Virus record (IMG/VR): IMGVR_UViG_2684623059_000001
Strand: one strand, 5' to 3'
DNA: 35,640 nucleotides
Source of the DNA: a virus
Taxonomy: Duplodnaviria > Heunggongvirae > Uroviricota > Caudoviricetes
Below the pieces are notes generated by a model, which was not told where the DNA came from, did no database searches, and was given only the letters and a program-made list of their open reading frames with translations. This document shows positions 1 through 32,973 of this stretch, one piece after another (positions within the stretch are counted from its first letter, which is position 1; every line of letters starts with the position of its first letter). A program made the translations under genes and the position numbers.

Positions 1-1074
1 TCATTTGTTGATTTCAATTTTGTCCCATTCTCTCCCTCGGCTGTCCCTATACCGCGCCGCCATTGAATCTGATTTATGCCCGAGAAGACGTTGAGCAAAC
101 TTATCGCCAATCTGATTCCGGTATAGCCTCGCCGACAGGCTACGCAGTTCATGGAATGTTGGCGGGTCTCCATCAAATGAGAGTCCAGATGCATTTCTCG
201 CCTTTGTAAAATACTTAGATACTGTTTTCGGGGAAAGCGGTTCGTGATGCGTTGATGCAATTATTGTTTCACTGCCGCTGGCCTCCCTGCATTTCTGTAG
301 TGTATCAGCCAATGAAATATTGAGCGCGTCAATCGTTAGCGTCAGCGGAATGGCGAGCTTAGCCCCTGTTTTACCCTGTTCAATGTGAAGATGGTTGTCG
401 TTTATGTCTGACCATTTCATTTTGCACAAATCGCCGACTCTCTGACCTGTAACGACGGCCAAATCCATCGCAAGCCTCAGCCAGATTGGGAGAGGTTCGG
501 CTGCATGGTGAATTGCGACATACTCATTAGCTGTCAGCCTTGAGCGCCTTACTTCTGACTTTGCTGTGCGGGTTGCTGTTACCGGATTCGTAGCCACATG
601 CCCCTCGGCTATTGCCTCACGAAAAACGTCAACAAGGGTTGACCTGATTAATTTTGCGGAAGCCGCTTTACCTTCTGCTACGTAGGTGTTTAGCATTGCT
701 GCCACCTCTTTCGTTGATATGTCTGCGAGCGGTTTGTCCGGCAATTTTCTTCGGATTGCCCTGATTTTGCTGGCGTAGTCGAGTAGAGTTTTCGGCCTGA
801 TACCCCTCTCGCTGAGGATTGTTTCATATCGGTCAAGCCACGCATGAAGAGTGATTGCGTCAGCGCCTTTAATTCTGTCTATCAGTGACTCACGCCTGTT
901 CCCGGATAGCAACTCAATATTGGCCTGTATAGCTTCAGTGATTGCTATACGTCTGTCTCGGCCTAATCCGAACTCTTTACCCGTCCTTGGGTCCCTGTAG
1001 CAGTAATATCCATTGTTTCTTATATAAAGATTAGGGGGTAAATCCCGGCGCTCATGACTTCGCCTTCTTCCCAT
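1..1074 (-). CDS. int: Phage integrase, tyrosine recombinase, lambda Int type
   Basis: 357-aa translation starts MGRRRSHERRDLPPNLYIRNNGYYCYRDPRTGKEFGLGRDRR and ends ...RGREWDKIEINK, collinear with lambda Int as I remember it; overlaps xis as in lambda. Confidence 0.95.
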   Translation of the reverse strand: MGRRRSHERRDLPPNLYIRNNGYYCYRDPRTGKEFGLGRDRRIAITEAIQANIELLSGNRRESLIDRIKGADAITLHAWLDRYETILSERGIRPKTLLDYASKIRAIRRKLPDKPLADISTKEVAAMLNTYVAEGKAASAKLIRSTLVDVFREAIAEGHVATNPVTATRTAKSEVRRSRLTANEYVAIHHAAEPLPIWLRLAMDLAVVTGQRVGDLCKMKWSDINDNHLHIEQGKTGAKLAIPLTLTIDALNISLADTLQKCREASGSETIIASTHHEPLSPKTVSKYFTKARNASGLSFDGDPPTFHELRSLSARLYRNQIGDKFAQRLLGHKSDSMAARYRDSRGREWDKIEINK

Positions 1075-1270
1075 TTCTGATCCTCTTCAAAAGGCTACCT
1101 GTTACTGGTCGATTTAAGTCAACCTTTACCGCTGATTCGTGGAACAGATACTCTCTTCCATCCTTAACCGGAGGAGGGAATATCCTGCACTCGCGTACCC
1201 ATCGACGAACTGTTTCAAGGCTTCTTGGGCGTCGCTGGCGTGCGTTCCACTCCTGAAGTGTCAAGTACAT
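1052..1270 (-). CDS. xis: Excisionase
   Basis: 72-aa translation MYLTLQEWNARQRRPRSLETVRRWVRECRIFPPPVKDGREYLFHES... matches lambda Xis almost residue for residue (from memory); 3' end overlaps int start. Confidence 0.93.
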   Translation of the reverse strand: MYLTLQEWNARQRRPRSLETVRRWVRECRIFPPPVKDGREYLFHESAVKVDLNRPVTGSLLKRIRNGKKAKS

Positions 1271-1375: not shown

Positions 1376-1720
1376 TTAGTCCTTGCGTAACTCACTAATT
1401 CTTCTGTAAGTCTCTGGTGCTTTGTTTCCGTGTATCTTCATTTCAGACTTCAACAGAGCAACGAGGGAATCCCATTCGTTGAGGATGCCTTTGAATGCCG
1501 GAACGCGCTTTGCAACCTTGTCGAATGAATCTCTGATTTCTGGAATCTGCTCAACAAGTGCAACGCATCGCCGGAAGTCTGCTGCGTCATGTGGAGCGCC
1601 GAAGTGATGACCATAGATATTCTTTTTCAGTCCACATGCGATTGAGGCAAGAGTTGCGCTACTAATGCCAACATCGCCAGTCGATTGCCATTTCAAAACC
1701 TTCATAGCCAAATCTGACAT
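1376..1720 (-). CDS. Hypothetical phage early-region protein (114 aa), function unknown
   Basis: Intact ORF co-oriented with xis and int immediately upstream of xis; I do not recognise a family. Confidence 0.55.
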   Translation of the reverse strand: MSDLAMKVLKWQSTGDVGISSATLASIACGLKKNIYGHHFGAPHDAADFRRCVALVEQIPEIRDSFDKVAKRVPAFKGILNEWDSLVALLKSEMKIHGNKAPETYRRISELRKD

Positions 1721-2057: not shown

Positions 2058-2129
2058 TGAAGTGGCACACTGAATTTGGCCACCTGAACAGAGGTGATAT
2101 GCTCACCTCAGAACAACACAGGTGCTCCA

Positions 2130-3298
<1,169 letters not shown>

Positions 3299-3306
3299 CC
3301 ACTTCA

Positions 3307-3396
3307 ATGCTGGAAGTTCACGTGTGTGAGCACTGCTGCGCAGAGCTGATGAGCGATTCGAATAGCTCGATGCACGAGGAAGAAGATGATGGCTAA
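3307..3396 (+). pseudogene. ninF: ninF 3' remnant (last ~29 codons) abutting the IS911 right end
   Basis: Frame reads (M)[28 protein letters not shown] then stop, matching the lambda NinF C-terminus as I remember it; the NinF N-terminus is not present left of the IS. Confidence 0.7.
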
Positions 3397-4212: not shown

Positions 4213-4855
4213 TGGCAGCAAATACCGAAATATTTGGGTAGCTGGCGACCTGCACGGATGCTACACGAACCTGATGAACAAACTGGATACGATTGGATTC
4301 GATAACAAAAAAGACCTGCTTATCTCGGTGGGCGATTTGGTTGATCGCGGTACAGAGAACGTTGAATGTCTGGAATTAATCACATTCCCCTGGTTCAGAG
4401 TTGTACGTGGAAACCATGAGCAAATGATGATTGATGGCTTATCAGAGCGTGGAAACGTCAATCACTGGCTGCTTAATGGCGGTGGCTGGTTCTTTAATCT
4501 CGATTACGACAAAGAAATTCTGGCTAAAGCTCTTGCCCATAAAGCAGAAGAACTTCCGTTAATCATCGAACTGGTGAGCAAAGGTAAAAAATATGTCATC
4601 TGCCACGCCGATTATCCTTGTGACGAATACGAATTTGGAAAGCCAGTTGATCATCAGCAGGTAATCTGGAACCGCGAACGAATCAGCAACTCACAAGACG
4701 GGATCGTGAAAGAAATTAAAGGCGCGGACACGTTCATCTTTGGTCATACGCCAGCAGTGAAACCACTCAAGTTTGCCAACCAGATGTATATCGATACTGG
4801 CGCAGTGTTCTGCGGAAACCTCACATTGATTCAGGTACAGGGAGAAGGCGCATGA
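4190..4855 (+). CDS. ninI: Lambda-type serine/threonine protein phosphatase (NinI)
   Basis: Metallophosphatase motifs GDLHG, GDLVDRG and GNHE in the translation; ATG at 4190 gives the 221-aa lambda length, the listed ORF start at 4115 overlaps ninH. Confidence 0.88.
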
Positions 4856-5475
4856 GACTCGAAAGCGTAGCTAAATTTCATTCGCCAAAAAGCCCGATGA
4901 TGAGCGACTCACCACGGGCTACGGCTTCTGACTCTCTTTCCGGTACTGATGTGATGGCTGCTATGGGGATGGCGCAATCACAAGCCGGATTCGGAATGGC
5001 TGCATTCTGCGGTAAGCACGAACTCAGCCAGAAAGACAAACAAAAGGCCATCAACTATCTGATGCAATTTGCACACAAGGTATCGGGGAAATACCGTGGT
5101 GTGGCAAAGCTTGAAGGAAATACTAAGGCAAAGGTGCTGCAAGTGCTCGCAACATTCGCTTATGCGGATTATTGCCGTAGTGCCGCGACGCCGGGCGCAA
5201 GATGCAGAGATTGCCACGGTACAGGCCGTGCGGTTGATATAGCCAAAACAGAGCAGTGGGGGAGAGTTGTCGAGAAAGAGTGCGGAAGATGCAAAGGCAT
5301 CGGCTATTCAAGGATGCCAGCAAGCGCCGCATATCGCGCTGTGACGATGCTAATCCCAAACCTTACCCAACCCACCTGGTCACGCACTGTTAAGCCGCTG
5401 TATGACGCTCTGGTGGTGCAATGCCACAAGGAAGAGTCAATTGCAGACAACATTTTGAATACGGTCACACGTTAG
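4852..5475 (+). CDS. Q: Late-gene antiterminator Q (lambda type)
   Basis: 207-aa translation [33 protein letters not shown]...[12 protein letters not shown]...CGRCKGIGY matches lambda Q with its zinc-binding cysteines; start overlaps ninI stop. Confidence 0.93.
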
Positions 5476-5546: not shown

Positions 5547-5754
5547 TGACGCCAACAATGGGTGTTTTTTGCCTGCCATTGATGAATCTCAATAACCTGC
5601 CACCGAGTAGTTTTTATGCCCTGAATTGTATTTGTGTAGTAAACATGCTGACTGCAATGTAATAGAGTTTTTTTAGCCTGTAACCTCTTGACGGCATTGA
5701 ATTGCTTTTGTTATGAGTTGTAAGCCAATGTTATCATCTTGTATTGGGGTGGTT

Positions 5755-6471
5755 ATGAAGGATGGTGCGCTGCTCAGGAGTTCTTCACTTTTTATTGCCT
5801 ATATGGGATGCCTTGGATGGGGGAGTGCTTATTTCTATGGATGGGGTACTTCTTTTTACTACGGCTTCCCATGGTGGATTGTAGGTGCAGGTGTTGATGA
5901 TGTTGCCAGAAGTTTATTTTTTGCAGTTATCGTCATTGCTATATTTCTTATCGGTTGGGGTATTGGTGTTGTATTCTTTTTCGCAGTGAAAAGAAAACAT
6001 TCTATGCAAGAGCTAAATGTATTTCGCCTTTATTTTGCTGTGGAATTATTGTTTGTGCCGGCAATTATTGAGTTTTCTATATTGAGACAGAAGATTCAGG
6101 TACCTCTTTTGCTACTGTCAGCAGCGATTGCGCTGGCGGTTACAATTTCGATAAGATCTTATGGGCGATTTTTATCGGTATCATGCTTCTATGATAAGCC
6201 ATTTATAAAAAAACATTTTTTTGAGATTGTGATGATTGCTTTTGTGGCATATTTCTGGCTTTTTTCATTTCTGACAGGATATTACAAACCACAGTTTAAG
6301 AAAGAATATGAAATGATTAATTATAATGATGGTTGGTATTATGTTCTTGCTCGTTATGATAATTGTCTGGTTTTGTCTACTTCTTTCAATGCAGGTAGTA
6401 AAAGGTTTGTCATTTATCAATCAGCACAAGATAAGAATCTTCAGGTTGATATTGTAAGGACCAGAATTTAA
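5755..6471 (+). CDS. Hypothetical polytopic inner-membrane protein (about 238 aa), AT-rich insert downstream of Q
   Basis: Long open frame in visibly AT-rich DNA; about five hydrophobic segments (for example FFAVIVIAIFLIGWGIGVVFFFAV) then a ~60-aa hydrophilic C-terminal domain. ATG at 5755 is preceded by ggggtgg; an alternative ATG at 5713 is listed. Confidence 0.6.
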   Translation: MKDGALLRSSSLFIAYMGCLGWGSAYFYGWGTSFYYGFPWWIVGAGVDDVARSLFFAVIVIAIFLIGWGIGVVFFFAVKRKHSMQELNVFRLYFAVELLFVPAIIEFSILRQKIQVPLLLLSAAIALAVTISIRSYGRFLSVSCFYDKPFIKKHFFEIVMIAFVAYFWLFSFLTGYYKPQFKKEYEMINYNDGWYYVLARYDNCLVLSTSFNAGSKRFVIYQSAQDKNLQVDIVRTRI

Positions 6472-6957: not shown

Positions 6958-7049
6958 CGGCCTGCTATTGGCAGATGTTCATCCTGTGATTTTCTTCTGT
7001 TCCTGCTCCGGCCTTTCCCTACTTTATTCCTGTGCATGAGAGAAATTTG

Positions 7050-8903
7050 ATGTCGATTAAACGTTATGATTTGGTCAGGGCTGCCTCGCCGTCAGATCTG
7101 GCGGAAAAACTGACACAAAAGCTGAAAGAGGGCTGGCAGCCATACGGCGGACCGGTTGCCATTACGCCGTACACACTGATGCAGGCGGTGGCTATTGAAG
7201 GAGATCCACAGGTCGGCCCTTCATCTGAGCCGGACTGGTTCTACGTGGTTGTGCTTGCCGGACAGTCCAACGGCATGGCCTACGGTGAAGGGCTTCCGTT
7301 GCCGGATTCTTACGATGCTCCGGATCCGCGCATTAAACAGCTGGCGCGCCGCAGCACGGTAACTCCGGGTGGAGAGAGTTGTACGTATAACGACATCATC
7401 CCGGCTGACCACTGTCTGCATGATGTGCAGGATATGAGTACGCTGAATCATCCGAGGGCTGACCTAAGCAAAGGTCAGTATGGCTGTGTGGGGCAGGGAC
7501 TTCATATTGCCAAAAAACTGCTCCCGTATATCCCGAATAATGCGGGGATCCTGCTGGTACCATGCTGTCGTGGTGGTTCGGCATTTACCCTGGGCGCGGA
7601 GGGGACATTCAGTGCGGACACGGGGGCCAGCCAGGATTCGGCGCGCTGGGGTGTGGGTAAACCGTTATATCAGGACCTGATTGTGCGCACCAAAGCTGCA
7701 TTACAGAAGAACCAGAAAAATGTGTTGCTGGCGGTGTGCTGGATGCAGGGAGAGTTTGACATGAGCGCCGCCACCTACGCACAGCAACCTGCGCTGTTTA
7801 CAGCCATGCTGAAGCAGTTTCGTGCTGACCTCACTGTGTTTAACGCGCAGTGTCATGGTGGCAGTGCTGTAAATGTGCCGTGGATTTGTGGTGACACGAC
7901 GTATTACTGGAAAAACACCTACGGCACGCAGTACAACACCATTTACGGGGCGTACAAAAACAGGGAGAGTGAGGGCGTTTATTTTGTGCCGTTCATGACA
8001 GACGGTAACGGCGTCAATACCGCCACTAATGCGCCGGCAGAAGATCCAGATATTCCGGCATCAGGATATTACGGTGCGGCATCGAGAACGAATGGAAACC
8101 AGGTATCATCAAACCGCCCGACACATTTTAGTTCATGGGCGCGCAGGAGCATTATTTCGGATCGCCTGGCAACCGCTATTCTGAACGCAGCCGGGCGCAC
8201 CTCAGCCTTCATCAGTGGTAAGGCACCGGAAATCAACCCCTCGCCCGGCGGCGATACGCCATCGGGGCCGTCTGATAGCGAAACATCCGTCCGCACAGTC
8301 TCCCTGCTGCCGGCAGACGGAGAGGCTGCTACGCAGGGCTGGACTATTAAAGATGGCGGAATTCAGCTGGCAGATGGTGTATTTAAGATCACCAAGCAGA
8401 GCAATAAAACCTGGTCCCTGGCGCATCCGGTGGATGACGCAATTACCCTGCTGACACAGGGCGGCAGGCTGACTTGTAAGTTCCGCCTGTCTGGAGCTCT
8501 GACTAATAATCAGTTCGGGCTGGGGATTTATCTGTATACGGACGCTCCCGTTCCTGATGGTGTGGCGATGACGGGTACCGGTAATCCGTTCCTGATGTCG
8601 TACTTCACTCAGACCACTGACGGTAGACTGAATCTGATGCATCACAGGAAAGCAGGAAACACGAAGCTGGGGGAATTTGGGGGCTACAGTAACGACTGGC
8701 AGACGCTGGAGCTGGTGTTCACCGCCGGCAGTGCCACGGTTACTCCGAAACTGAATGGAGTGGCTGGCCCGGCATTCCAGGTTATAAAAGACAGTCTGAC
8801 TCTGGGACTGAATGCGCTGACGCTGACGGATGTTACAAAAAATGCAGCGTATGGCGTTGAGATAGAAAGTCTGATGCTGGAGATAAATGCACCGGCATCA
8901 TAA
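7050..8903 (+). CDS. nanS-p: Prophage sialate O-acetylesterase (NanS-p type, N-terminal DUF1737 plus SGNH/SASA esterase domain)
   Basis: N-terminus MSIKRYDLVRA... and a GQSN motif near the start of the esterase domain; position after Q and before the lysis genes matches 933W-type phages. ATG at 7050 preferred over the GTG at 7032. Confidence 0.78.
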   Translation: MSIKRYDLVRAASPSDLAEKLTQKLKEGWQPYGGPVAITPYTLMQAVAIEGDPQVGPSSEPDWFYVVVLAGQSNGMAYGEGLPLPDSYDAPDPRIKQLARRSTVTPGGESCTYNDIIPADHCLHDVQDMSTLNHPRADLSKGQYGCVGQGLHIAKKLLPYIPNNAGILLVPCCRGGSAFTLGAEGTFSADTGASQDSARWGVGKPLYQDLIVRTKAALQKNQKNVLLAVCWMQGEFDMSAATYAQQPALFTAMLKQFRADLTVFNAQCHGGSAVNVPWICGDTTYYWKNTYGTQYNTIYGAYKNRESEGVYFVPFMTDGNGVNTATNAPAEDPDIPASGYYGAASRTNGNQVSSNRPTHFSSWARRSIISDRLATAILNAAGRTSAFISGKAPEINPSPGGDTPSGPSDSETSVRTVSLLPADGEAATQGWTIKDGGIQLADGVFKITKQSNKTWSLAHPVDDAITLLTQGGRLTCKFRLSGALTNNQFGLGIYLYTDAPVPDGVAMTGTGNPFLMSYFTQTTDGRLNLMHHRKAGNTKLGEFGGYSNDWQTLELVFTAGSATVTPKLNGVAGPAFQVIKDSLTLGLNALTLTDVTKNAAYGVEIESLMLEINAPAS

Positions 8904-17309: not shown

Positions 17310-17642
17310 ATGACGAGCAAAGAAACCTTTACCCATTATCAGCCGCTGGGCAACAGTGACCCGGCTCATACCGCAACCGCGCCAGGCGGATTGAGTGCGA
17401 AAGCGCCTGCAATGACCCCGCTGATGCTGGACACCTCCACCCGTAAGCTGGTTGCGTGGGATGGCACCACCGACGGCGCTGCCGTTGGCATTCTGGCAGT
17501 TGCTGCTGACCAGACCAGCACCACGCTGACGTTCTACAAGTCCGGCACGTTCCGTTATGAGGATGTGCTCTGGCCGGATGCTGCCAGCGACGAGACGAAA
17601 AAACGGACCGCGTTTGCCGGAACGGCAATCAGCATCGTTTAA
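17310..17642 (+). CDS. D: Head decoration protein D
   Basis: [37 protein letters not shown]... matches lambda gpD; 333 bp. Confidence 0.93.
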
Positions 17643-21228: not shown

Positions 21229-21651
21229 ATGTTCCTGAAAACCGAATCATTTGAACATAACGGCGTGACCGTCACGCTTTCTGAACTGTCAGCCCTGCAG
21301 CGCATTGAGCATCTCGCCCTGATGAAACGGCAGGCAGAACAGGCGGAGTCAGACAGTAACCGGAAGTTTACTGTGGAAGACGTCATCAGAACCGGCGCTT
21401 TTGTGGTGGCGATGTCCCTGTGGCATAACCATCCGAAGAAGACGCAGATGCCGTCCATGAATGAAGCCGTTAAACAGATTGAGCAGGAAGTGCTCACCAC
21501 CTGGCCCACAGAGGCGATTTCTCATGCTGAAAACGTGGTGTACCGGCTGTCCGGTATGTATGAGTTTGTGGTGAATGATGCCCCTGAACAGGCGGAGGAC
21601 GCCGGGCCTGCAGAGCCTGTTTCTGCGGGAAAGTGTTCGACGGTGAGCTGA
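21229..21651 (+). CDS. G: Tail assembly chaperone G
   Basis: MFLKTESFEHNGVTVTLSELSALQRIEHLALMKRQAEQAESDSNRKF... lambda gpG-like. Confidence 0.9.
   Translation: MFLKTESFEHNGVTVTLSELSALQRIEHLALMKRQAEQAESDSNRKFTVEDVIRTGAFVVAMSLWHNHPKKTQMPSMNEAVKQIEQEVLTTWPTEAISHAENVVYRLSGMYEFVVNDAPEQAEDAGPAEPVSAGKCSTVS
21627..21633 (+). other. G-T programmed -1 frameshift slippery site G GGA AAG
   Basis: gggaaag at 21627..21633 lies 18 nt before the G stop codon, where the T frame opens; same geometry as lambda. Confidence 0.75.
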
Positions 21652-22058
21652 GTTTTGCCCTGAAACTGGCGCGTGAGATGGGGCGACCCGACTGGCGTGC
21701 CATGCTTGCCGGGATGTCATCCACGGAGTATGCCGACTGGCACCGCTTTTACAGTACCCATTATTTTCATGATGTTCTGCTGGATCTGCACTTTTCCGGG
21801 CTGACGTACACCGTGCTCAGCCTGTTTTTCAGCGATCCGGATATGCATCCGCTGGATTTCAGTCTGCTGAACCGGCGCGAGGCTGACGAAGAGCCTGAAG
21901 ATGATGTGCTGATGCAGAAAGCGGCAGGGCTTGCCGGAGGTGTTCGTTTTGGTCCGGACGGGAATGAAGTTATCCCCGCTTCCCCGGACATGACGGAGGA
22001 TGACGCAATGCTGATGACAGTATCAGAAGGGATCGCAGGAGGAGTCCGGTATGGCTGA
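21633..22058 (+). CDS. T: Tail assembly protein T frame (expressed as the G-T fusion)
   Basis: -1 frame ORF overlapping the G 3' end; translation ...LSFALKLAREMGRPDWRAMLAGMSSTEYADWHRFYSTHYF... lambda gpT-like. Confidence 0.85.
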   Translation: MFDGELSFALKLAREMGRPDWRAMLAGMSSTEYADWHRFYSTHYFHDVLLDLHFSGLTYTVLSLFFSDPDMHPLDFSLLNRREADEEPEDDVLMQKAAGLAGGVRFGPDGNEVIPASPDMTEDDAMLMTVSEGIAGGVRYG

Positions 22059-24630
22059 ACCGGTAGGCGATCTGGTCGTTGATTTAAGTCTGGATGCAGC
22101 CAGATTTGACGAGCAGATGGCCAGAGTCAGGCGTCATTTTTCCGGTACGGAAAGTGATGCGAAAAAAACAGCGGCAGTTGTTGAGCAGTCGATGAACCGA
22201 CAGGCGCTGGCTGCACAGAAAGCGGGTATCTCTGTAGGGCAGTATAAAGCTGCCATGCGTATGCTTCCTGCACAGTTCACCGACGTGGCCACGCAGCTTG
22301 CAGGGGGGCAGAACCCGTTTCTCATCCTGCTGCAACAGGGCGGCCAGGTAAAAGATTCCTTCGGTGGGTTGATCCCCATGTTCAGGGGGCTTGCCGGTGC
22401 AGTCACCCTGCCGATGGTGGGGCTCACTTCGCTGGCAGTTGCCACCGGAGCGCTGGCGTATGCCTGGTATCAGGGGGATTCAACCCTGTCCAGTTTCAAT
22501 AAAACGCTGGTCCTTTCCGGTAATCAGGCAGGACTGACGGCAGATCGTATGCTGGCCCTGTCCAGAGCCGGGCAGGCGGCAGGGCTGACGTTTAACCAGA
22601 CCAGCGAGTCACTGACGGCGCTGGTGAATGCCGGTGTGCGTGGTGGTGAGCAGTTTGAGGCGATCAGCCAGAGTGTGGCGCGTTTTTCCTCCGTATCCGG
22701 CGTGGAGGTGGACAAGGTCGCTGAAGCCTTCGGGAAGCTGACCACAGACCCGACGTCGGGGCTGACAGCGATGGCGCGCCAGTTCCATAACGTGACGGCG
22801 GAGCAGATTGCGTATGTTGCTCAGTTGCAGCGTTCCGGCGATGAAGCCGGGGCATTGCAGGCGGCGAACGAGGCCGCAACGAAAGGGTTTGATGATCAGA
22901 CCCGCCGCCTGAAAGATAACATGGGCACGCTGGAGACCTGGGCAGACAAGACAGCACGGGCATTTAAATCCATGTGGGATTCGGTGCTGGATATTGGTCG
23001 CCCGGACACTGCCCGGGAAATGCTGGAGAAAGCAGAAAAGGCTTTTGATGAAGCGGACAAGAAATGGCAGTGGTATCAGAGCCGGAGCCGCCGGCGTGGT
23101 AAAACCTCAGCATTTCTTGCCAATCTCCGTGGCGCATGGGAGGACAGGGCGAATGCGCAACTTGGTCTTTCAGCCGCCACATTGCAGGCAGATCTTGAAA
23201 AGGCCAGTGAGATGGCAGCAAAAGATCGTGCTGAGTCTGAGGCATCACGGCTGAAATATACCGAAGAGGCGCAGAAGGCTTACGAACGTCTGCAGACTCC
23301 GCTGGAGAAATATACCGCCCGTCAGGAAGAACTGAACAAGGCACTGAAAGACGGAAAAATCCTGCAGGCAGATTACAACACGCTGATGGCGGCAGCGAAA
23401 AAGGATTATGAAGCGACGCTGAAAAAGCCAAAGCAGTCCGGCGTGAAAGTGTCTGCAGGCTATCGCCAGGAAGACAGTGCTCATGCTGCCCTGCTGACGC
23501 TTCAGGCAGAGCTCCGGACGCTGGAGAAGCATGCCGGAGCGAATGAGAAAATCAGCCAGCAGCGCCGGGATTTGTGGAAGGCGGAGAGTCAGTTCGCTGT
23601 ACTGGAGGAAGCGGCACAACGTCGCCAGCTGTCCGCACAGGAGAAATCCCTGCTGGTACATAAAGAGGAGACGCTGGAGTACAAACGACAACTGGCAGAG
23701 CTAGGCGATAAGGTCGAACATCAGAAACGCCTGAATACACTGGCGCAGCAGGCGGATAAATTCGCACAGCAACAACGGGCAAAACGGGCTGCCATTGATG
23801 CGAAAAACCGCGGGATGACAGACCGGCAGGCAGCGCGGGAAGCCACTGAACAGCGCCTGAAGGAACAGTATGGTGATAATACGCTGGCGCTGAATAACGT
23901 CCTGTCAGAGCAGAAAAAGACCTGGGCGGCTGAAGACCAGCTTAACGGGAGCTGGATGGCTGGCCTGAAGTCCGGCTGGAGCGAGTGGAAAGAGAGTGCC
24001 ACGGACAGTATGTCGCAGGTTAAAAGTGTTGCCACGCAGACCTTTGATGGTATTGCGCAGAATATGGCGGCGATGCTGACCGGCAGTGAGCAGAACTGGC
24101 GCAGCTTCACCCGTTCCGTGCTGTCCATGCTGACAGAAATTCTGCTTAAGCAGGCAATGGTGGGGATTGTCGGGAGTATCGGCAGCGCCATTGGCGGAGC
24201 TGTTGGTGGCGGTGCATCAGCGTCAGGCGGTACAGCCATTCAGGCTGCTGCGGCGAAATTCCATTTTGCGACCGGAGGTTTTACGGGGACCGGCGGCAAA
24301 TATGAGCCAGCGGGGATTGTTCACCGTGGTGAATTTGTCTTCACGAAGGAGGCAACCAGCCGGATTGGCGTGGGAAATCTCTACCGGCTGATGCGCGGCT
24401 ATGCCACCGGTGGTTATGTCGGTACACCGGGCAGTCTGGCGGACAGCCGGTCGCAGGCGTCCGGGAAGTTTGAGCAGAATAACCATGTGGTGATTAACAA
24501 CGACGGCACGAACGGGCAGATAGGTCCGGCTGCTCTGAAGGCGGTGTATGACATGGCCCGCAAGGGTGCCCGTGATGAAATTCAGACACAGATGCGTGAT
24601 GGTGGCCTGTTCTCCGGAGGTGGACGATGA
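22051..24630 (+). CDS. H: Tail tape measure protein H
   Basis: 859 aa, MAEPVGDLVVDLSLDAARFDEQMARVRRHFSG... with long coiled-coil-like Ala/Gln/Lys-rich middle and Gly-rich C-terminus; lambda gpH-like. Confidence 0.95.
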   Translation: MAEPVGDLVVDLSLDAARFDEQMARVRRHFSGTESDAKKTAAVVEQSMNRQALAAQKAGISVGQYKAAMRMLPAQFTDVATQLAGGQNPFLILLQQGGQVKDSFGGLIPMFRGLAGAVTLPMVGLTSLAVATGALAYAWYQGDSTLSSFNKTLVLSGNQAGLTADRMLALSRAGQAAGLTFNQTSESLTALVNAGVRGGEQFEAISQSVARFSSVSGVEVDKVAEAFGKLTTDPTSGLTAMARQFHNVTAEQIAYVAQLQRSGDEAGALQAANEAATKGFDDQTRRLKDNMGTLETWADKTARAFKSMWDSVLDIGRPDTAREMLEKAEKAFDEADKKWQWYQSRSRRRGKTSAFLANLRGAWEDRANAQLGLSAATLQADLEKASEMAAKDRAESEASRLKYTEEAQKAYERLQTPLEKYTARQEELNKALKDGKILQADYNTLMAAAKKDYEATLKKPKQSGVKVSAGYRQEDSAHAALLTLQAELRTLEKHAGANEKISQQRRDLWKAESQFAVLEEAAQRRQLSAQEKSLLVHKEETLEYKRQLAELGDKVEHQKRLNTLAQQADKFAQQQRAKRAAIDAKNRGMTDRQAAREATEQRLKEQYGDNTLALNNVLSEQKKTWAAEDQLNGSWMAGLKSGWSEWKESATDSMSQVKSVATQTFDGIAQNMAAMLTGSEQNWRSFTRSVLSMLTEILLKQAMVGIVGSIGSAIGGAVGGGASASGGTAIQAAAAKFHFATGGFTGTGGKYEPAGIVHRGEFVFTKEATSRIGVGNLYRLMRGYATGGYVGTPGSLADSRSQASGKFEQNNHVVINNDGTNGQIGPAALKAVYDMARKGARDEIQTQMRDGGLFSGGGR

Positions 24631-24956
24631 AAACCTTCCGCTGGAAAGTGAAACCCGGTATGGATGTGGCTTCGGCCCCTTCCGTAAGAAAGGTGCGCTT
24701 TGGTGATGGCTATTCCCAGCGAGCGCCTGCCGGGCTGAATTCCAACCTGAAAACGTACAGCGTGACGTTTTCTGTTCCCCGTTGGGAGGCCACGGCGCTG
24801 GAGTCGTTTCTGGCTGAGCATGGGGGCTGGAAAGCCTTTCTGTGGACGCCGCCTTATGAGTGGCGGCAGATAAAGGTGACCTGCGCAAAATGGTCGTCGC
24901 GGGTCAGTATGCTGCGTGTTGAGTTCAGCGCAGAGTTTGAACAGGTGGTGAACTGA
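24627..24956 (+). CDS. M: Tail tip protein M
   Basis: MKTFRWKVKPGMDVASAPSVRKVRFGDGYSQRAPAGLNSNLKTYSVTF... lambda gpM-like. Confidence 0.92.
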   Translation: MKTFRWKVKPGMDVASAPSVRKVRFGDGYSQRAPAGLNSNLKTYSVTFSVPRWEATALESFLAEHGGWKAFLWTPPYEWRQIKVTCAKWSSRVSMLRVEFSAEFEQVVN

Positions 24957-25654
24957 TGCAGGATATCCGGCAGGAAACACTGAATGAATGCACCCGTGCG
25001 GAGCAGTCGGCCAGCGTGGTGCTCTGGGAAATCGACCTGACAGAGGTCGGTGGAGAACGTTATTTTTTCTGCAATGAGCAGAACGAAAAAGGTGAGCCGG
25101 TCACCTGGCAGGGGCGACAGTATCAGCCGTATCCCATTCAGGGGAGTGGTTTTGAACTGAATGGCAAAGGCACCAGTACGCGCCCCACGCTGACGGTTTC
25201 TAACCTGTACGGTATGGTCACCGGCATGGTGGAAGATATGCAGAGTCTGGTCGGCGGAACGGTGGTTCGGCGTAAGGTTTACGCCCGTTTTCTGGATGCG
25301 GTGAACTTCGTCAACGGAAACATCGAGGCAGACCCGGAGCAGGAGGTGATCAGCCGCTGGCGCATCGAGCAGTGCAGCGAACTGAGCGCGGTGAGTGCCT
25401 CCTTTGTACTGTCCACGCCGACAGAAACGGATGGCGCTGTTTTTCCGGGGCGTATCATGCTGGCCAACACCTGCACCTGGACCTATCGCGGTGATGAGTG
25501 CGGTTATCACGGTCCGGCGGTCGCGGATGAATATGACCAGCCGACGTCCGATATCACGAAGGATAAATGCAGCAAATGCCTGAGTGGCTGTAAGTTTCGC
25601 AATAACGTCGGCAACTTTGGCGGCTTCCTTTCCATTAACAAACTTTCGCAGTAA
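24956..25654 (+). CDS. L: Tail tip protein L
   Basis: MQDIRQETLNECTRAEQSASVVLWEIDLTEVGGERYFFCNEQNEKGEPV... lambda gpL-like, including the C-terminal cysteine cluster CSKCLSGC. Confidence 0.92.
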   Translation: MQDIRQETLNECTRAEQSASVVLWEIDLTEVGGERYFFCNEQNEKGEPVTWQGRQYQPYPIQGSGFELNGKGTSTRPTLTVSNLYGMVTGMVEDMQSLVGGTVVRRKVYARFLDAVNFVNGNIEADPEQEVISRWRIEQCSELSAVSASFVLSTPTETDGAVFPGRIMLANTCTWTYRGDECGYHGPAVADEYDQPTSDITKDKCSKCLSGCKFRNNVGNFGGFLSINKLSQ

Positions 25655-25659
25655 ATCCC

Positions 25660-26403
25660 ATGACAGAGACAGAATCAGCGATTCTGGCGCACGCCCGGCG
25701 ATGTGCGCCAGCGGAGTCGTGCGGCTTCGTGGTGAGAACGCCGGAGGGGGAAAGATATTTTCCCTGTGTGAATATCTCCGGTGAGCCGGAAGCATATTTC
25801 CGGATGTCGCCGGAGGACTGGCTGCAGGCCAAAATGCAGGGTGAGATTGTGGCGCTGGTCCACAGTCATCCCGGTGGTCTGCCCTGGCTGAGTGAGGCTG
25901 ACCGGCGGCTGCAGGTGCAGAGTGATTTGCCGTGGTGGCTGGTCTGCCGGGGGGCGATTCACAAGTTCCGCTGTGTGCCACATCTTACCGGGCGGCGCTT
26001 TGAGCACGGGGTGACGGACTGTTACACGCTGTTCCGGGACGCTTACCATCTGGCGGGGATTGAGATGCCGGATTTTCATCGTGAGGATGACTGGTGGCGT
26101 AACGGCCAGAATCTCTATCTGGATAATCTGGAGGCCACAGGGCTGTATCAGGTGCCGTTGTCATCAGCACAACCGGGTGATGTGCTGCTGTGCTGTTTTG
26201 GTTCATCGGTGCCGAATCATGCCGCCATTTACTGTGGTGACGGCGAGCTGCTGCACCATATTCCTGAACAACTGAGCAAACGAGAGAGGTATACCGACAA
26301 ATGGCAGCGACGCACACACTCCCTCTGGCGTCACCGGGCATGGCGCGAATCTGCCTTTACGGGGATTTACAACGATTTGGCCGCCGCATCGACCTTCGTG
26401 TGA
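25660..26403 (+). CDS. K: Tail tip assembly protein K (JAMM/MPN plus NlpC/P60-like domains)
   Basis: Contains JAMM motif HSHPGGLPWLSEAD; the long ORF from 25660 adds ~48 residues upstream of the classical lambda K start (equivalent ATG at 25804); 3' end overlaps I by ~100 bp as in lambda. Confidence 0.88.
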   Translation: MTETESAILAHARRCAPAESCGFVVRTPEGERYFPCVNISGEPEAYFRMSPEDWLQAKMQGEIVALVHSHPGGLPWLSEADRRLQVQSDLPWWLVCRGAIHKFRCVPHLTGRRFEHGVTDCYTLFRDAYHLAGIEMPDFHREDDWWRNGQNLYLDNLEATGLYQVPLSSAQPGDVLLCCFGSSVPNHAAIYCGDGELLHHIPEQLSKRERYTDKWQRRTHSLWRHRAWRESAFTGIYNDLAAASTFV

Positions 26404-26972
26404 AAACGGGGGCTGAAGCCATCCGGGCACTGGCCACACAGCTCCCGGCGTTTCGTCAGAAACTGAGCGACGGCTGGTATCAGGTACGGATTGCCGGGCG
26501 GGACGTCAGCACGTCCGGGTTAACGGCGCAGTTACATGAGACTCTGCCTGATGGCGCTGTGATTCATATTGTTCCCAGAGTCGCCGGGGCCAAGTCAGGT
26601 GGCGTATTCCAGATTGTCCTGGGGGCTGCCGCCATTGCCGGATCATTCTTTACTGCCGGAGCCACTCTTGCAGCATGGGGGGCAGCCATTGGGGCCGGTG
26701 GTATGACCGGCATCCTGTTTTCTCTCGGTGCCAGTATGGTGCTTGGCGGTGTGGCCCAGATGCTGGCCCCTGAACCCAGAACTCCCCGCACACAAACAAC
26801 GGATAACGGTAAGCAGAACACGTATTTCTCGTCACTGGACAATATGGTTGCCCAGGGCAATGTTCTGCCTGTTCTGTACGGTGAAATGCGCGTGGGGTCA
26901 CGTGTTGTCTCTCAGGAGATCAGCACGGCAGACGAGGGGGACGGTGGTCAGGTTGTGGTGATTGGTCGTTGA
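26301..26972 (+). CDS. I: Tail tip assembly protein I
   Basis: MAATHTLPLASPGMARICLYGDLQRFGRRIDLRVKTGAEAIRALATQLPAF... lambda gpI-like. Confidence 0.9.
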   Translation: MAATHTLPLASPGMARICLYGDLQRFGRRIDLRVKTGAEAIRALATQLPAFRQKLSDGWYQVRIAGRDVSTSGLTAQLHETLPDGAVIHIVPRVAGAKSGGVFQIVLGAAAIAGSFFTAGATLAAWGAAIGAGGMTGILFSLGASMVLGGVAQMLAPEPRTPRTQTTDNGKQNTYFSSLDNMVAQGNVLPVLYGEMRVGSRVVSQEISTADEGDGGQVVVIGR

Positions 26973-27032
26973 TGAAAAACGTTTTATGTGAAACCGCCTC
27001 AGGGCGGTTTTGTCATTTCTGGAGCGAGAGGA

Positions 27033-30000
27033 ATGGGTAAAGGCAGCAGTAAGGGGCATACCCCGCGCGAAGCGAAGGACAACCTGAAATCATCCCAGCT
27101 GCTGAGCGTGATAGACGCCATCAGTGAAGGGCCGATTGAAGGTCCGGTGGACGGATTAAAAAGTGTGCTGCTGAACAGTACGCCGGTGCTGGACAGTGAG
27201 GGGAATACCAATATCTCCGGTGTCACGGTGGTGTTCCGTGCCGGTGAGCAGGAGCAGACACCGCCGGAGGGATTTGAATCCTCCGGTTCAGAAACCGTTA
27301 TCGGTGCAGAATTAAAATATGACAATCCGCTCACCCGGACCATCACGTCGGCAAACATCGACCGTCTGCGCCTGACCTTCGGTGTGCAGGCACTGGTGGA
27401 AACCACTTCAAAGGGGGACCGGAATCCGTCGGAAGTCCGCCTGCTGGTTCAGATACAACGTAACGGTGGCTGGGTGACGGAAAAAGACATCACCATTAAG
27501 GGCAAAACCACCTCACAGTATCTGGCCTCGGTGGTGGTGGGTAATCTGCCGCCGCGCCCGTTCAATATCCGGCTGCGCAGGATGACGCCGGACAGCACCA
27601 CAGACCAGCTGCAGAACAAAACGCTCTGGTCGTCATACACCGAAATTATCGATGTGAAACAGTGCTACCCGAACACGGCACTGGTCGGCGTGCAGGTGGA
27701 CTCGGAACAGTTCGGCAGTCAGCAGGTGAGCCGTAATTATCATCTTCGCGGGCGCATTCTGCAGGTGCCGTCGAACTATAACCCGCAGACGCGGCAATAC
27801 AGCGGTATCTGGGACGGAACGTTTAAGCCAGCATACAGCAACAATATGGCCTGGTGTCTGTGGGATATGCTGACCCATCCGCGCTACGGCATGGGGAAGC
27901 GTCTCGGTGCGGCGGATGTGGACAAATGGGCGCTGTATGTCATCGGCCAGAATTGCGACCAGTCGGTGCCGGACGGCTTTGGCGGCACGGAGCCGCGCAT
28001 CACCTGTAACGCTTACCTGACCACACAGCGCAAGGCGTGGGATGTGCTCAGTGATTTCTGCTCGGCGATGCGCTGTATGCCGGTATGGAACGGGCAGACG
28101 CTGACGTTCGTGCAGGACCGACAGTCGGATAAGGTGTGGACCTATAACCGCAGTAATGTGGTGATGCCGGATGATGGCGCGCCGTTCCGCTACAGCTTCA
28201 GCGCCCTGAAGGACCGCCATAACGCCGTTGAGGTGAACTGGATTGACCCGGACAACGGCTGGGAGACGGCGACAGAGCTGGTTGAAGACACGCAGGCCAT
28301 TGCCCGTTACGGTCGTAACGTCACGAAGATGGATGCCTTTGGCTGTACCAGCCGGGGGCAGGCGCACCGCGCCGGGCTGTGGCTGATTAAAACGGAACTG
28401 CTGGAAACGCAGACCGTGGACTTCAGCGTGGGTGCAGAAGGGCTTCGCCATGTGCCGGGAGACGTCATTGAAATCTGCGATGATGACTATGCGGGTATCA
28501 GCATCGGTGGTCGCGTGCTGGCGGTGAACAGCCAGACCCGGACGCTGACGCTCGACCGTGAAATCACGCTGCCAGCCTCCGGCACCACACTGATAAGCCT
28601 GGTCGACGGGACGGGGAGTCCGGTCAGCGTGGAGGTCCAGTCCGTCACCGACGGCGTGCAGGTGAAAGTGAACCGTATCCCTGACGGCGTTGCCGGATAC
28701 AGCGTGTGGGGGCTGAAGCTGCCGACGCTGCGCCAGCGCCTGTTCCGCTGTGTGAGTATCCGTGAGAACGATGACGGCACGTATGCCATCACTGCCGTGC
28801 AGCATGTACCGGAAAAAGAAGCCATCGTGGATAACGGGGCGCACTTTGACGGCGACCAGAGCGGCACGGTGAACGGTGTCACGCCGCCAGCGGTGCAGCA
28901 CCTGACCGCCGAAGTTTCGGCAGACAGCGGGGAATATCAGGTACTGGCGCGCTGGGACACGCCGAAGGTGGTGAAGGGGGTGAGCTTTATGCTTCGCCTG
29001 ACTGTGGCAGCAGACGACGGCAGTGAGCGGCTGGTCAGCACGGCCAGGACGACGGAAACCACATACCGCTTCACGCAACTGGCGCCAGGGAACTACAGGC
29101 TGACAGTCCGGGCGGTAAATGCGTGGGGACAGCAGGGCGACCCGGCGTCGGTATCGTTCAGGATTGCCGCACCGGCAGCGCCGTCACAGATTGAGCTGAC
29201 GCCGGGCTATTTTCAGATAACCGCCACGCCGCATCTTGCGGTTTATGACCCGACGGTACAGTTTGAGTTCTGGTTTTCGGAAAAGCGGATTACCGATATC
29301 AGGCAGGTTGAAACCACAGCCCGCTATCTTGGCACGGGGATGTACTGGATAGCCGCCAGTATCAATATCAAACCGGGCCATGATTATTACTTTTATATCC
29401 GCAGCGTGAACACCGTTGGCAAATCGGCATTCGTGGAGGCCGTCGGTCGGGCGAGCGATGATGCGGAAGGTTACCTGGATTTTTTCAAAGGCAAGATAAC
29501 CGAATCCCATCTCGGCAAGGAGCTGCTGGAAAAAGTCGAGCTGACGGAGGATAACGCCAGCAGACTGGAGGAGTTTTCGAAAGAGTGGCAGGACGCCAAC
29601 GATAAGTGGAATGCCATGTGGGCTGTCAAAATTGAGCAGACCAAAGACGGCAAACATTATGTCGCGGGACTTGGCCTCAGCATGGAGGACACGCCGGAAG
29701 GCAAACTGAGCCAGTTTCTGGTCGCCGCTAACCGTATTGCGTTTATTGATCCGTCTAATGGCAACACACGACCAATGTTTGTTGGTCAGGGCGATCAGAT
29801 ATTCATGAACGACGTGTTCCTGAAGCGTCTGACGGCCCCTACCATCACCAGCGGCGGCAATCCTCCGGCATTTTCCCTGACACCGGACGGGCGGCTGACG
29901 GCGAAAAACGCTGATATCAGCGGTAACGTGAATGCGAACTCAGGAACGCTCAACAATGTCACGATAAGTGAGAACTGTACGATTAAGGGCATGCTGGAGG

Positions 30001-30446
30001 CGACCCAGGTCAGAGGGGATTTCGTTAAAGCTGTATCAAAAGCCTTCCCGAAAAAAGTCGGTACGTGGGGTAACACGGAAACGCCAGACGGGACGGTTAC
30101 CGTCACCATCAGCGATGATCATAACTTTGACCGTCAGATTATTATCCCGCCCATTATTTTTAACGGTATAGCGTATACCGATCCGGGAAGTGGTAATAAT
30201 CCGGGAGGTACAAGGTACACGGGTTATGGATTTGAAGTTCGCAAAAACGGCGTATTAATCGCATCCAGAGAAACTAAAGGGGCCATTCCCGGTAGTTACA
30301 GTGCGGTTATTGATATGCCGAGTGGGCGAGGTAGCGTCACTCTGGAGTTTAAGATTTACCAGAAAGGCAATCAGGGGGCAGGCAATATCACCGACTGTAC
30401 GGTGATTGTGACCAAAAAAGCGGCTTCCGGCATCAGTATTCGTTGA
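27033..30446 (+). CDS. J: Central tail fibre / host-specificity protein J
   Basis: From ATG 27033: [41 protein letters not shown]..., lambda gpJ-like over most of its length; C-terminal region looks different from lambda J by recall. Listed ORF begins at an upstream GTG (26988). Confidence 0.93.
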
Positions 30447-30466
30447 AATTGTTATAACCCATATAA

Positions 30467-30491
30467 GGGCACCAGAAATGGTGCCTTTTTT
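30467..30491 (+). terminator. Rho-independent terminator after J
   Basis: ggcacca / gaaa / tggtgcc hairpin followed by tttttt. Confidence 0.55.
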
Positions 30492-30515
30492 ATTGCAGAA
30501 AAGCGAGAGGTAATT

Positions 30516-31115
30516 ATGCGTAAATTATGTGCTGTTATTCTGTCCGCAGTAGTCTGGCTGGTTGCCGCTGGTACGCCAGCGAGCGCAGCAGAGCATCAGT
30601 CCACACTAAGCGCCGGGTATCTTCAGACCCATACTGATATGCCAGGCAGTGATGACCTGAAGGGCATTAACGTGAAATACCGTTATGAGTTTACGGACAC
30701 GCTGGGGCTGGTGACGTCATTCAGCTATGCAGGAGACAAGAATCGCCAGCTGACCCATTACAGCGATACCCGCTGGCACGAAGATTCCGTGCGTAACCGC
30801 TGGTTCAGCGTAATGGCGGGGCCATCTGTGCGCGTGAATGAATGGTTCAGCGCGTATGCGATGGCGGGTGTGGCTTACAGCCGTGTGTCGGCTTTTTCCG
30901 GGGATTATCTCCGCGTAACTGACAACAAGGGGAAAACGCACGACGTGCTGACCGGAAGTGATGACGCTCGCCACAGCAATACCTCTCTGGCGTGGGGAGC
31001 TGGCGTGCAGTTTAACCCGACCGAATCCGTGGCCGTTGATGTCGCTTATGAAGGCTCCGGCAGCGGTGACTGGCGTACCAACAGTTTCATCGTTGGTGTC
31101 GGTTATAAATTCTGA
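30516..31115 (+). CDS. lom: Lom outer-membrane protein (Ail/Lom/PagC family beta-barrel)
   Basis: Signal peptide MRKLCAVILSAVVWLVAAGTPASA, beta-barrel character and C-terminal ...GVGYKF; lambda Lom-like; own ribosome-binding site gagagg. Confidence 0.9.
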   Translation: MRKLCAVILSAVVWLVAAGTPASAAEHQSTLSAGYLQTHTDMPGSDDLKGINVKYRYEFTDTLGLVTSFSYAGDKNRQLTHYSDTRWHEDSVRNRWFSVMAGPSVRVNEWFSAYAMAGVAYSRVSAFSGDYLRVTDNKGKTHDVLTGSDDARHSNTSLAWGAGVQFNPTESVAVDVAYEGSGSGDWRTNSFIVGVGYKF

Positions 31116-31142
31116 TTAGCCAGGTAACACAGTGTTATGACA

Positions 31143-31168
31143 GCCCGCCGGTTCAGGCGGGCTTTTTT
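31143..31168 (+). terminator. Rho-independent terminator after lom
   Basis: gcccgcc / ggttca / ggcgggc hairpin followed by tttttt. Confidence 0.6.
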
Positions 31169-31179
31169 GTGGGGTGAGT

Positions 31180-32493
31180 ATGGCAGTAAAGATTTCAGGT
31201 GTACTGAAAGATGGTGCAGGTAAGCCGATACAAAACTGTACCATTCAGCTAAAGGCCAGGCGCAACAGCACCACGGTGGTGGTGAACACAGTGGCCTCAG
31301 AAAACCCGGATGAAGCCGGGCGTTACACAATGGACGTTGAGTACGGTCAGTACAGCGTCATTCTGTTGGTGGAGGGATTCCCGCCGTCACATGCCGGGAC
31401 CATCACAGTGTATGAAGATTCTCAGCCGGGTACGCTGAATGATTTTCTCGGTGCCATGACGGAGGATGATGTCCGGCCGGAGGCACTGCGTCGTTTTGAA
31501 CAGATGGTGGAAGAGGCAGCGCGTCACGCTGAGGAGGCGAAGAAGAATGCCGGAGAGGCAGAGACGTCAGCGAGGAATGCGGGTATATCAGCCGGCCAGG
31601 CGGAAAAGAGTGCAGTAAATGCTGAGACTTCTGCAGGGGATGCATCGGAGTCAGCCCGGCAGGCGACGGAAAGTGCAGCCTCAGCAAAGCAGTCAGAGGA
31701 TGCGTCCTCGTCCTCGGCTTCTGCGGCCGCTCAAAAAGCCAGTGAGTCATCACAAAGTGCAGCAGAAGCTGAATTGTCAAGAAAGACGGCAGAAAGTGCA
31801 GCCGATAATGCATCCAGGGATGCAACGACCGCAGCAGAAAAAGCCCGGGAGTCAGCAGAAAGCGCACAGTCAGCGGAACAAAGCAGGATAGCGGCGGAAG
31901 AGGCCGTAAACCGAATCCCCACCGTGGTGGGACCTCCCGGGCCAAAGGGGGAACAGGGGCCCGCTGGCCCTCAGGGGCCGAAGGGTGATAAGGGAGAGCG
32001 TGGTGACACCGGCCCTGTCGGGGCAACCGGCGAACGGGGACCGGGAGGAGATACAGGTCCGGCAGGCCCGCAGGGGCCGAAAGGCGACAGGGGGGAACGG
32101 GGAGAGACCGGTCTGACGGGAAGTACAGGTCCACAGGGGCCAAAGGGAGATACCGGTGCAGCAGGCCCGGCAGGCCCACAGGGACCGAAAGGAGAAACAG
32201 GAGCGGCAGGTCCGGTGGGGGCTACCGGACCTCAGGGGCCGAAGGGAGACCCGGGCGAGACACAAATCCGTTTTCGTCTGGGGCCGATGAGCATTATTGA
32301 GACAAACAGCTATGGCTGGTTCCCGGATACAGATGGTGCGCTCATCACCGGACTGACCTTTCTTGACCCCAAAGATGCCACACAGGTTCAGGGGATGTTT
32401 CAGCATTTGCAGGTCAGATTTGGTGACGGGCCGTGGCAGGATGTTAAGGGGCTGGATGAAGTGGGCAGTGATACAGGCAGAACAGGAGAATGA
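31180..32493 (+). CDS. stf: Side tail fibre protein with collagen-like Gly-X-Y repeat domain
   Basis: N-terminus [38 protein letters not shown]... lambda Stf-like; middle is Ala/Ser/Glu-rich; then about 35 uninterrupted G-X-Y triplets ([29 protein letters not shown]...) and a ~75-aa C-terminal globular domain. Confidence 0.85.
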
Positions 32494-32494
32494 C

Positions 32495-32764
32495 ATGAAC
32501 ATACTAAAAAAACTTATGCAGCGTCTGTGTGGTTGCGGAAAGCATGATGGCCGTGAACACGGGCAGTCACTTACAGCACAACTGCGACTGGGGCCGGCAG
32601 ACATCCTGGAGTCAGATGAGAATGGTATTATCCCGGAGCAGGCCAGGGTAATCACTCAGGTGGTGATACTGGATGCGGATAAAAAGCAGATACAGTGCGT
32701 GGTAAGACCGCTGCAAATTCTGCGTGCTGACGGGACGTGGGAAAATATTGGCTGGATGAAGTAA
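32495..32764 (+). CDS. Hypothetical small protein (89 aa) immediately downstream of stf
   Basis: ATG 2 nt after the stf stop, preceded by aggagaa; followed by a terminator; no family recognised. It sits where a tail fibre assembly gene would be in lambda, but is much shorter than lambda Tfa. Confidence 0.45.
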   Translation: MNILKKLMQRLCGCGKHDGREHGQSLTAQLRLGPADILESDENGIIPEQARVITQVVILDADKKQIQCVVRPLQILRADGTWENIGWMK

Positions 32765-32782
32765 CCCGACAGCTTCACAAAA

Positions 32783-32805
32783 CCGGAGTCTGGCTCCGGT
32801 TTTTT
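32783..32805 (+). terminator. Rho-independent terminator closing the tail fibre operon
   Basis: ccggag / tctgg / ctccgg hairpin followed by tttttt. Confidence 0.55.
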
Positions 32806-32973
32806 GTTGTCATGTCATGGTGATGTTTGTTAATGAAGTTAAATTTATTTTGGCTTGATAATGGAGTCTTATCTTTTGCAAGACTGATAATGGTGTGTGA
32901 AAGCATTGTGATAAGTAAGATGCTTCAACAGGAAATCAAGTAAAATGTTAATGAAGTTAATGGGGGTTTTATT

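Follow-up and report, generated by a model that had tools for sequence, protein, structure and literature searches.

Gene J of the lambda-type prophage described here encodes the central tail fibre, or tip attachment protein. It is an intact member of the lambda J family in which the final 152 residues correspond to the phage 434 allele of the receptor-binding domain (RBD) and not to the lambda one. The gene lies on the plus strand at positions 27033..30446 of the window, by which is meant the whole 35,640-nucleotide stretch of IMG/VR record IMGVR_UViG_2684623059_000001, a virus in the Caudoviricetes. On strong homology, the receptor of J is most probably OmpC, not LamB. The window corresponds to AP014857.1, with an exact match over 24033-33446, and AP014857.1 belongs to Escherichia albertii EC06-170 (PMC7550682). 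The best complete E. coli genome reaches only about 95.7% identity over 26988-35640.

J is a protein of 1137 amino acids when read from the ATG (MGKGSSKGH...), and its reading frame stays open further 5', to a GTG at 26988 in the open reading frame (ORF) listing. It contains six Pfam domains in the lambda order (FNIII-A_GpJ, Phage-tail_3, Ig_J, Ig_J_second, Phage_Tail_Tip, and Ig_GpJ_C) and passes the NCBIfam model NF049904 lambda_TipJ over residues 1-1137, with 2270.7 bits against a cut-off of 1950. The gene sits in a lambda-type tail module, with H, M, L, K, and I upstream and lom and stf downstream. Residues 1-985 (27033..29987, plus strand) form the part shared with lambda. By the domain names of the lambda structure, this part comprises the hub domains, two FNIII/Ig (fibronectin type III/immunoglobulin) domains, a helical shaft, and the beta-prism central straight fibre (PMC11101478). 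The RBD occupies residues 986-1137 (29988..30443, plus strand) and is predicted to form an Ig-like beta sandwich.

A further feature of the shared part concerns phage defense. In lambda J, F924 is the trigger for the Gifsy-1 abortive-infection nuclease HepS, which Gifsy phages escape through an Ile at this position (PMC13043305). F924 (window 29802-29804) and the flanking QIFMNDVF motif are conserved in J, as in lambda J.

Pairwise alignment of J with lambda J (NC_001416 15505-18903) gives 87% identity over the whole protein. Over residues 1-985, 935 of 985 aligned columns are identical (94.9%), compared with 58 of 158 columns (36.7%) and two indels over residues 986-1137 (Fisher exact p = 1.2e-63). 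At the nucleotide level, identity to lambda runs at 0.82-1.00 and then falls to 0.47-0.55, with the drop between window positions 29932 and 30131. Relative to the lambda RBD, segment 1050-1059 is longer in J and segment 1111-1118 is shorter.

The sequence break in J is sharp and real, and it is located where an earlier reading of the window, made by a model from the sequence alone, had put it. This sequence-only reading described J as collinear with lambda J over most of its length and described the last ~150 residues as unlike lambda's LamB-binding end. Both descriptions agree with the alignment to lambda J that it had proposed as a check, in which the C-terminus is clearly divergent. The region it marked starts at 29990, which falls inside codon 986, and since J ends with the TGA at 30444-30446, the end of that region is the stop codon. 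The two peptides it quoted are both present in the plus-strand translation, beginning at residue 981 (29973) and residue 1105 (30345). The suspicion that it had misremembered lambda, and that J ends in an ordinary LamB-binding domain after all, is refuted by the direct alignment to NC_001416 J and can be set aside as having practically no chance of being true. The RBD fails as a lambda LamB-binding allele at this level of identity to lambda J residues ~985-1132, and nothing was found in favor of the suspicion.

Phage 434 J (UMO75286; OL657226 15505-18918) is 96% identical to J across all 1137 residues, with no gaps and 48 substitutions in total. Within the RBD, 146 of 152 residues are identical (96%), again without gaps. 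The six differences, given from window to 434, are T1049D, R1099G, I1108V, Y1109F, Q1110H, and G1115R. A megablast search with 457 bases (29990-30446) finds 74 phage records at 90-95% nucleotide identity. Carriers of the allele among phage records include 434, 434B, lambda h434 imm21, mEp460, cdtI, 2851, and many Stx1a, Stx2a, Stx2c, and Stx2d (Shiga toxin) phages.

Variation within the 434 class was assessed in an alignment of 16 sequences, made up of 14 cluster representatives, phage 434, and the window. The variable positions are 1004, 1008-1009, 1019, 1049-1050, 1099, 1108-1110, and 1115, of which 1049-1050 and 1108-1115 lie next to the two stretches of J with indels relative to lambda. 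Y1109 is unique to the window among these sequences, and the other window residues at variable positions recur in class members from E. coli phages.

The RBD is predicted to share the Ig-like beta-sandwich fold of the solved gpJ RBDs. Pfam PF12421 (Ig_GpJ_C) matches residues 1001-1136 with 89.6 bits against a cut-off of 26.2 and covers all but the last of the 135 profile positions (1-134). For residues 986-1137, an AlphaFold2 model that used 47 sequences is all-beta, with a predicted local distance difference test (pLDDT) score of 81.9 and a predicted template modeling (pTM) score of 0.78. Its best Foldseek matches are 8xck, 8xcj, 9wcb, and 9wca, with template modeling (TM) scores of 0.77-0.79, E = 8e-13 to 7.5e-12, and 36-41% identity; beyond these four gpJ structures, no Foldseek match exceeds TM 0.47. 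The first two are the lambda gpJ RBD in its closed and LamB-bound states, 9wca is A8 gpJ in the closed state, and 9wcb is A8 gpJ with OmpC of E. coli EDL933. Lambda gpJ (NP_040600; PDB 8iyk, 8xcj, 8xck), whose receptor is LamB, is of the same family as J and has the same domain order and RBD fold.

The population distribution of the RBD suggests that it moves as a discrete cassette. The last 190 residues of J were searched against 5.8 billion proteins, with identities taken over the 152-residue RBD, and the resulting protein clusters comprise 29 at 89.5% identity or above, one at 69%, and 54 at 36-45%. Of the 243 phage records in which a J-type RBD occurs, 74 reach 90% identity or more, 169 stay below 60%, and none falls between. 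Such a bimodal distribution points to cassette exchange. Over the RBD segment, at ~29850-30450, prophages of chicken E. coli (CP148409) and O55:H7 CB9615 match the window with 99-100% nucleotide identity. To the left of this segment, the match within J is 85-97%, and at the 5' end of lom it is only 77-79%. A nearly identical RBD within diverged flanks places one recombination boundary a short way upstream of the RBD and the other where J ends. The allele was most probably acquired as a cassette by recombination, with its left boundary in conserved sequence shortly before residue 985 and its right boundary at the end of J.

Divergence of the J end in place, from a lambda-type RBD through rapid point mutation under diversifying selection, is the competing account of its origin. 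Receptor-binding tips are known targets of such selection, and variation within the 434 class is clustered at few positions. Against this, nucleotide identity to lambda stays near 0.5 throughout the domain, which also contains indels, and essentially no proteins or phage records have intermediate identities of 60% to 89%. Moreover, the 99-100% identical allele occurs in flanks of differing divergence. In-place hypermutation was rejected on the basis of the indels, the identity gap, and the presence of the same allele in different flanks, and it is very improbable as the source of the J end.

The allele is common in sequenced genomes. Of 5426 complete E. coli genomes, 2084 contain the divergent 417 bases at a coverage of at least 80%, and a single genome can hold up to 7 copies. 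The sequence-only reading was right that the end of J is divergent and indicates another receptor, but it did not recognize the classical, named h434 allele; with this allele in about 38% of complete E. coli genomes, its point is correct but not new. The h434 allele of J has been known genetically for decades, and the phage 434 genome was published in 2022. A scan of species-representative genomes for the RBD gives only 3 loci, in E. coli, Escherichia sp. E1V33, and a contig from a Collinsella metagenome-assembled genome. This last contig (Collinsella sp., JAGZNZ010000056.1, 1350 bp) encodes the RBD at 96% identity and is most likely a misbinned fragment of an Escherichia phage.

OmpC is the reported receptor of the RBD class to which J belongs, in contrast to the LamB receptor of lambda gpJ. 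Lambda with the 434 tail-fibre gene binds OmpC, the phage 434 receptor (PMC3509688). The 434 central fibre is described as OmpC-targeting, and an AlphaFold 3 model docks its trimer on the OmpC trimer (PMC12502783). When the gpJ C-terminus alone, after residue 964, is exchanged for natural variants from prophages, lambda particles switch their target from LamB to OmpC (PMC11338833). The sequence-only reading proposed that a non-lambda outer-membrane receptor is probable, and the 96% identity to the 434 RBD, together with the OmpC receptor reported for 434, supports this proposal by homology. Exactly the variant in the window would likewise bind OmpC. In the gut, OmpC is abundant and lamB is often down-regulated (PMC11338833). 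For the carriers mEp460, mEp332, the PhiR phages, Kati, IdasGreatGrand, and Stx2c phage 2851, searches of the literature gave no usable data on receptors.

Several other gpJ proteins that use OmpC offer points of comparison. The A8 gpJ chimera (9wca, 9wcb) carries a natural prophage J C-terminus that folds like the RBD (TM 0.78) and binds OmpC, but the A8 RBD is only about 40% identical to the window RBD and is therefore a separate allele class. The 1A2 gpJ chimera (Brodel et al. 2024) likewise has a natural prophage J C-terminus that binds OmpC. J of phi330, a long-tailed Stx2a phage, is a lambda-like central fibre on a siphophage of enterohemorrhagic E. coli, and its need for OmpC was demonstrated by knockout and complementation (PMC12502783). 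According to its authors, the phi330 RBD is 35-40% identical to those of 434 and lambda, which makes it yet another class (PMC12502783).

The laboratory hybrid phage lambda h434 imm21 (OM418627) shows how the classical host-range marker is composed. In a comparison with its two parents, its sequence follows lambda as far as record position 17619 and 434 from 17637 onward, so that the crossover falls inside J, at about codon 705-711. The RBD thus belongs to the h434 segment. The lom, stf, and tfa genes and effector remnants of 434 also lie to the right of the crossover; since everything there is 434-derived, the classical "h434" marker is a multi-gene segment.

Several considerations weigh against OmpC as the receptor of J. 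The assignment is based on homology. Because the h434 hybrid has lom, stf, and tfa of 434 as well, its sequence by itself is no proof that the RBD sets host range. There are at least three OmpC-targeting RBD classes (434, A8, and phi330), which are mutually only about 35-41% identical; since these three unlike classes all target OmpC, class and receptor do not correspond one to one. The six differences from 434 fall at positions that vary within the class, and two clusters of them border the segments with indels relative to lambda. In phage 21, one substitution in J can be enough to confer use of OmpC or OmpF as well (PMC11336670), so the fine specificity of J could differ from that of 434. 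The A8 and 1A2 gpJ proteins distinguish between OmpC variants (PMC11338833). Finally, the prophage lacks an early region, and as a result J may lack a current use.

The concern over fine specificity can be stated as an alternative in which the RBD is of the 434 class but the six substitutions of the E. albertii variant shift or broaden its specificity, either to certain OmpC variants only or to OmpF or LamB as well. T1049, R1099, I1108/Y1109/Q1110, and G1115 all occupy polymorphic positions of the class, with Y1109 found only in the window among the 16 sequences, and 1049 and 1108-1115 adjoin both lambda-relative indel segments. Single J mutations that widen receptor use in phage 21 (PMC11336670) and the different OmpC variants accepted by A8 and 1A2 gpJ (PMC11338833) are consistent with such a shift. 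Against it, the RBD matches one of known receptor at 96% identity without indels, and every window residue except Y1109 recurs in class members from E. coli phages, with F/Y at 1109 a conservative change. A shifted or broadened specificity is thus rather unlikely, and OmpC use like that of phage 434 is the preferred reading.

By analogy with the lambda gpJ-LamB and A8 gpJ-OmpC complexes, three Ig-like RBD copies would cap the central tail fibre at its distal end. The four bottom loops of the trimer would insert into the extracellular mouth of the trimeric porin. Porin binding would spread the three domains, and this motion would travel up the fibre and open the tail tip for DNA ejection. Loop insertion and domain spreading are known from lambda structures (PMC11101478), and a J trimer at the tail tip may trigger DNA ejection in the same manner.

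The genes that follow J resemble those of phage 434. A terminator-like hairpin with a T run, found by consensus scan, lies just after J (30465..30498, plus strand), and a terminator is annotated at the corresponding site in the phage 434 record. The lom gene (30516..31115, plus strand) encodes a 199-residue Ail/Lom outer-membrane beta-barrel protein (Pfam Ail_Lom, E = 8.5e-124) and is collinear with 434 lom. The same scan finds a second terminator-like hairpin after lom (31142-31173). The hairpins after J and after lom bracket lom as a small unit of its own, as annotated in phage 434. The side tail fibre gene stf (31180..32493, plus strand) encodes 437 residues with collagen-like repeats and the Pfam domains phage_tail_N, Collagen, and Phage_fiber_C. 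It is of the 434 type, not the Ur-lambda type, has 0.86-0.97 nucleotide identity to 434 stf, and is annotated as 437 amino acids in AP014857.1. The adjoining tail fibre assembly chaperone gene, tfa (32495..32764, plus strand), encodes 89 residues with a Pfam Phage_fiber_C match and has the size and position of the 434 gene so annotated. Phage 434 J shares the 1137-residue length of the window J and has the same neighbors, namely K, I, lom, a 437-residue collagen-repeat stf, and an 89-residue tfa.

From K through tfa (window 25990-32760), the prophage runs collinear with phage 434, with nucleotide identities of 0.84-0.99, whereas the cargo region diverges. Genes for type III secretion system (T3SS) effectors come after tfa in both phages. 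In the window, the cargo comprises NleG (32974-33621), a transposase remnant, and NleA (34315-35640, minus strand), whose name is taken from the annotation of E. coli. In phage 434 and lambda h434 imm21, NleB-, NleC-, and NleH-like T3SS effector genes or fragments lie to the right of stf-tfa (record positions 21400-24700), and this slot of phage 434 is the same one that holds NleG and NleA in the window. The window prophage also differs from phage 434 in its E. albertii host and its missing early region.

The J protein is encoded identically twice in AP014857.1, the second time in another prophage. Pairwise alignment of window 24033-33446 with the matching part of that prophage (AP014857.1 4262693-4272106) identifies a block of 4,857 bp without a mismatch (25668..30524, plus strand), which consists of K, I, J, and the spacer between J and lom. 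The remainder of the 9.4-kb comparison contains 828 differences; the tape measure proteins have 1024 and 859 residues, and lom and the 5' part of stf are diverged. The block looks like the product of a recent gene conversion between co-resident prophages.

At its left end, the prophage carries int (1-1074, minus strand), an xis-like ORF (1052-1270, minus strand), and a 114-residue ORF without assignment (1376-1720, minus strand). These are followed by an IS3-type element with orfA and orfB (2094-3298), directly after which NinG begins at 3386. The interval from int/xis to NinG holds this element and no N, cI, cro, O, or P gene. Further right lie the Q antiterminator gene (4852-5475), a 252-residue ORF (5713-6471, plus strand), and a nanS-like esterase gene (7032-8903). 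The 252-residue ORF, between Q and the esterase gene, lies where Stx phages carry their stx genes; it has no Pfam or NCBIfam match. There are no tRNA genes in the window.

In contrast to the early region, the late genes Q, lysozyme, Rz, Nu1, terminase, portal, protease, capsid, Z, V, H, L, K, I, J, stf, and tfa are full-length with complete domain sets. From its gene content, the prophage is probably defective and unable to replicate alone, with particle genes that look intact. The sequence-only reading had raised mobilization of the tail module by a helper phage. This remark is partly apt, in that the N/cI/cro/O/P region is absent while the late and morphogenesis genes look intact.

The same gene content bears on whether J has any present role. 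The absence of N, cI, cro, O, and P, with only an IS3-type element in the interval between int/xis and NinG, fits J as a passenger in a decaying prophage, in which the RBD allele would be inherited history without a present role in adsorption. The completeness of J and of every late gene examined, together with the 100% identity of K-I-J in two prophages, argues against decay of this kind. The passenger account also bears on current use and not on the binding target of the domain. It is unlikely overall, and the prophage may still produce tails.

Two further readings go beyond OmpC use inherited with the 434 allele, and they are decidedly improbable. In the first, the RBD variant, with T1049, Y1109, and other substitutions beside the two indel segments, is tuned to E. 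albertii OmpC or to an extra porin. In the second, the K-I-J block is a selected gene conversion that keeps tail tips interchangeable. If the second were true, a prophage without an early region could be packaged and delivered with the parts or early functions of its neighbor and would thereby spread its NleA/NleG cargo.

The J result leaves the current understanding unchanged. J serves as an example of a receptor-binding tip that moves as a discrete cassette among E. coli and E. albertii prophages. OmpC would be the likely receptor for particles from this effector-carrying prophage, and it thus gives a first guess at the strains able to receive nleA and nleG.

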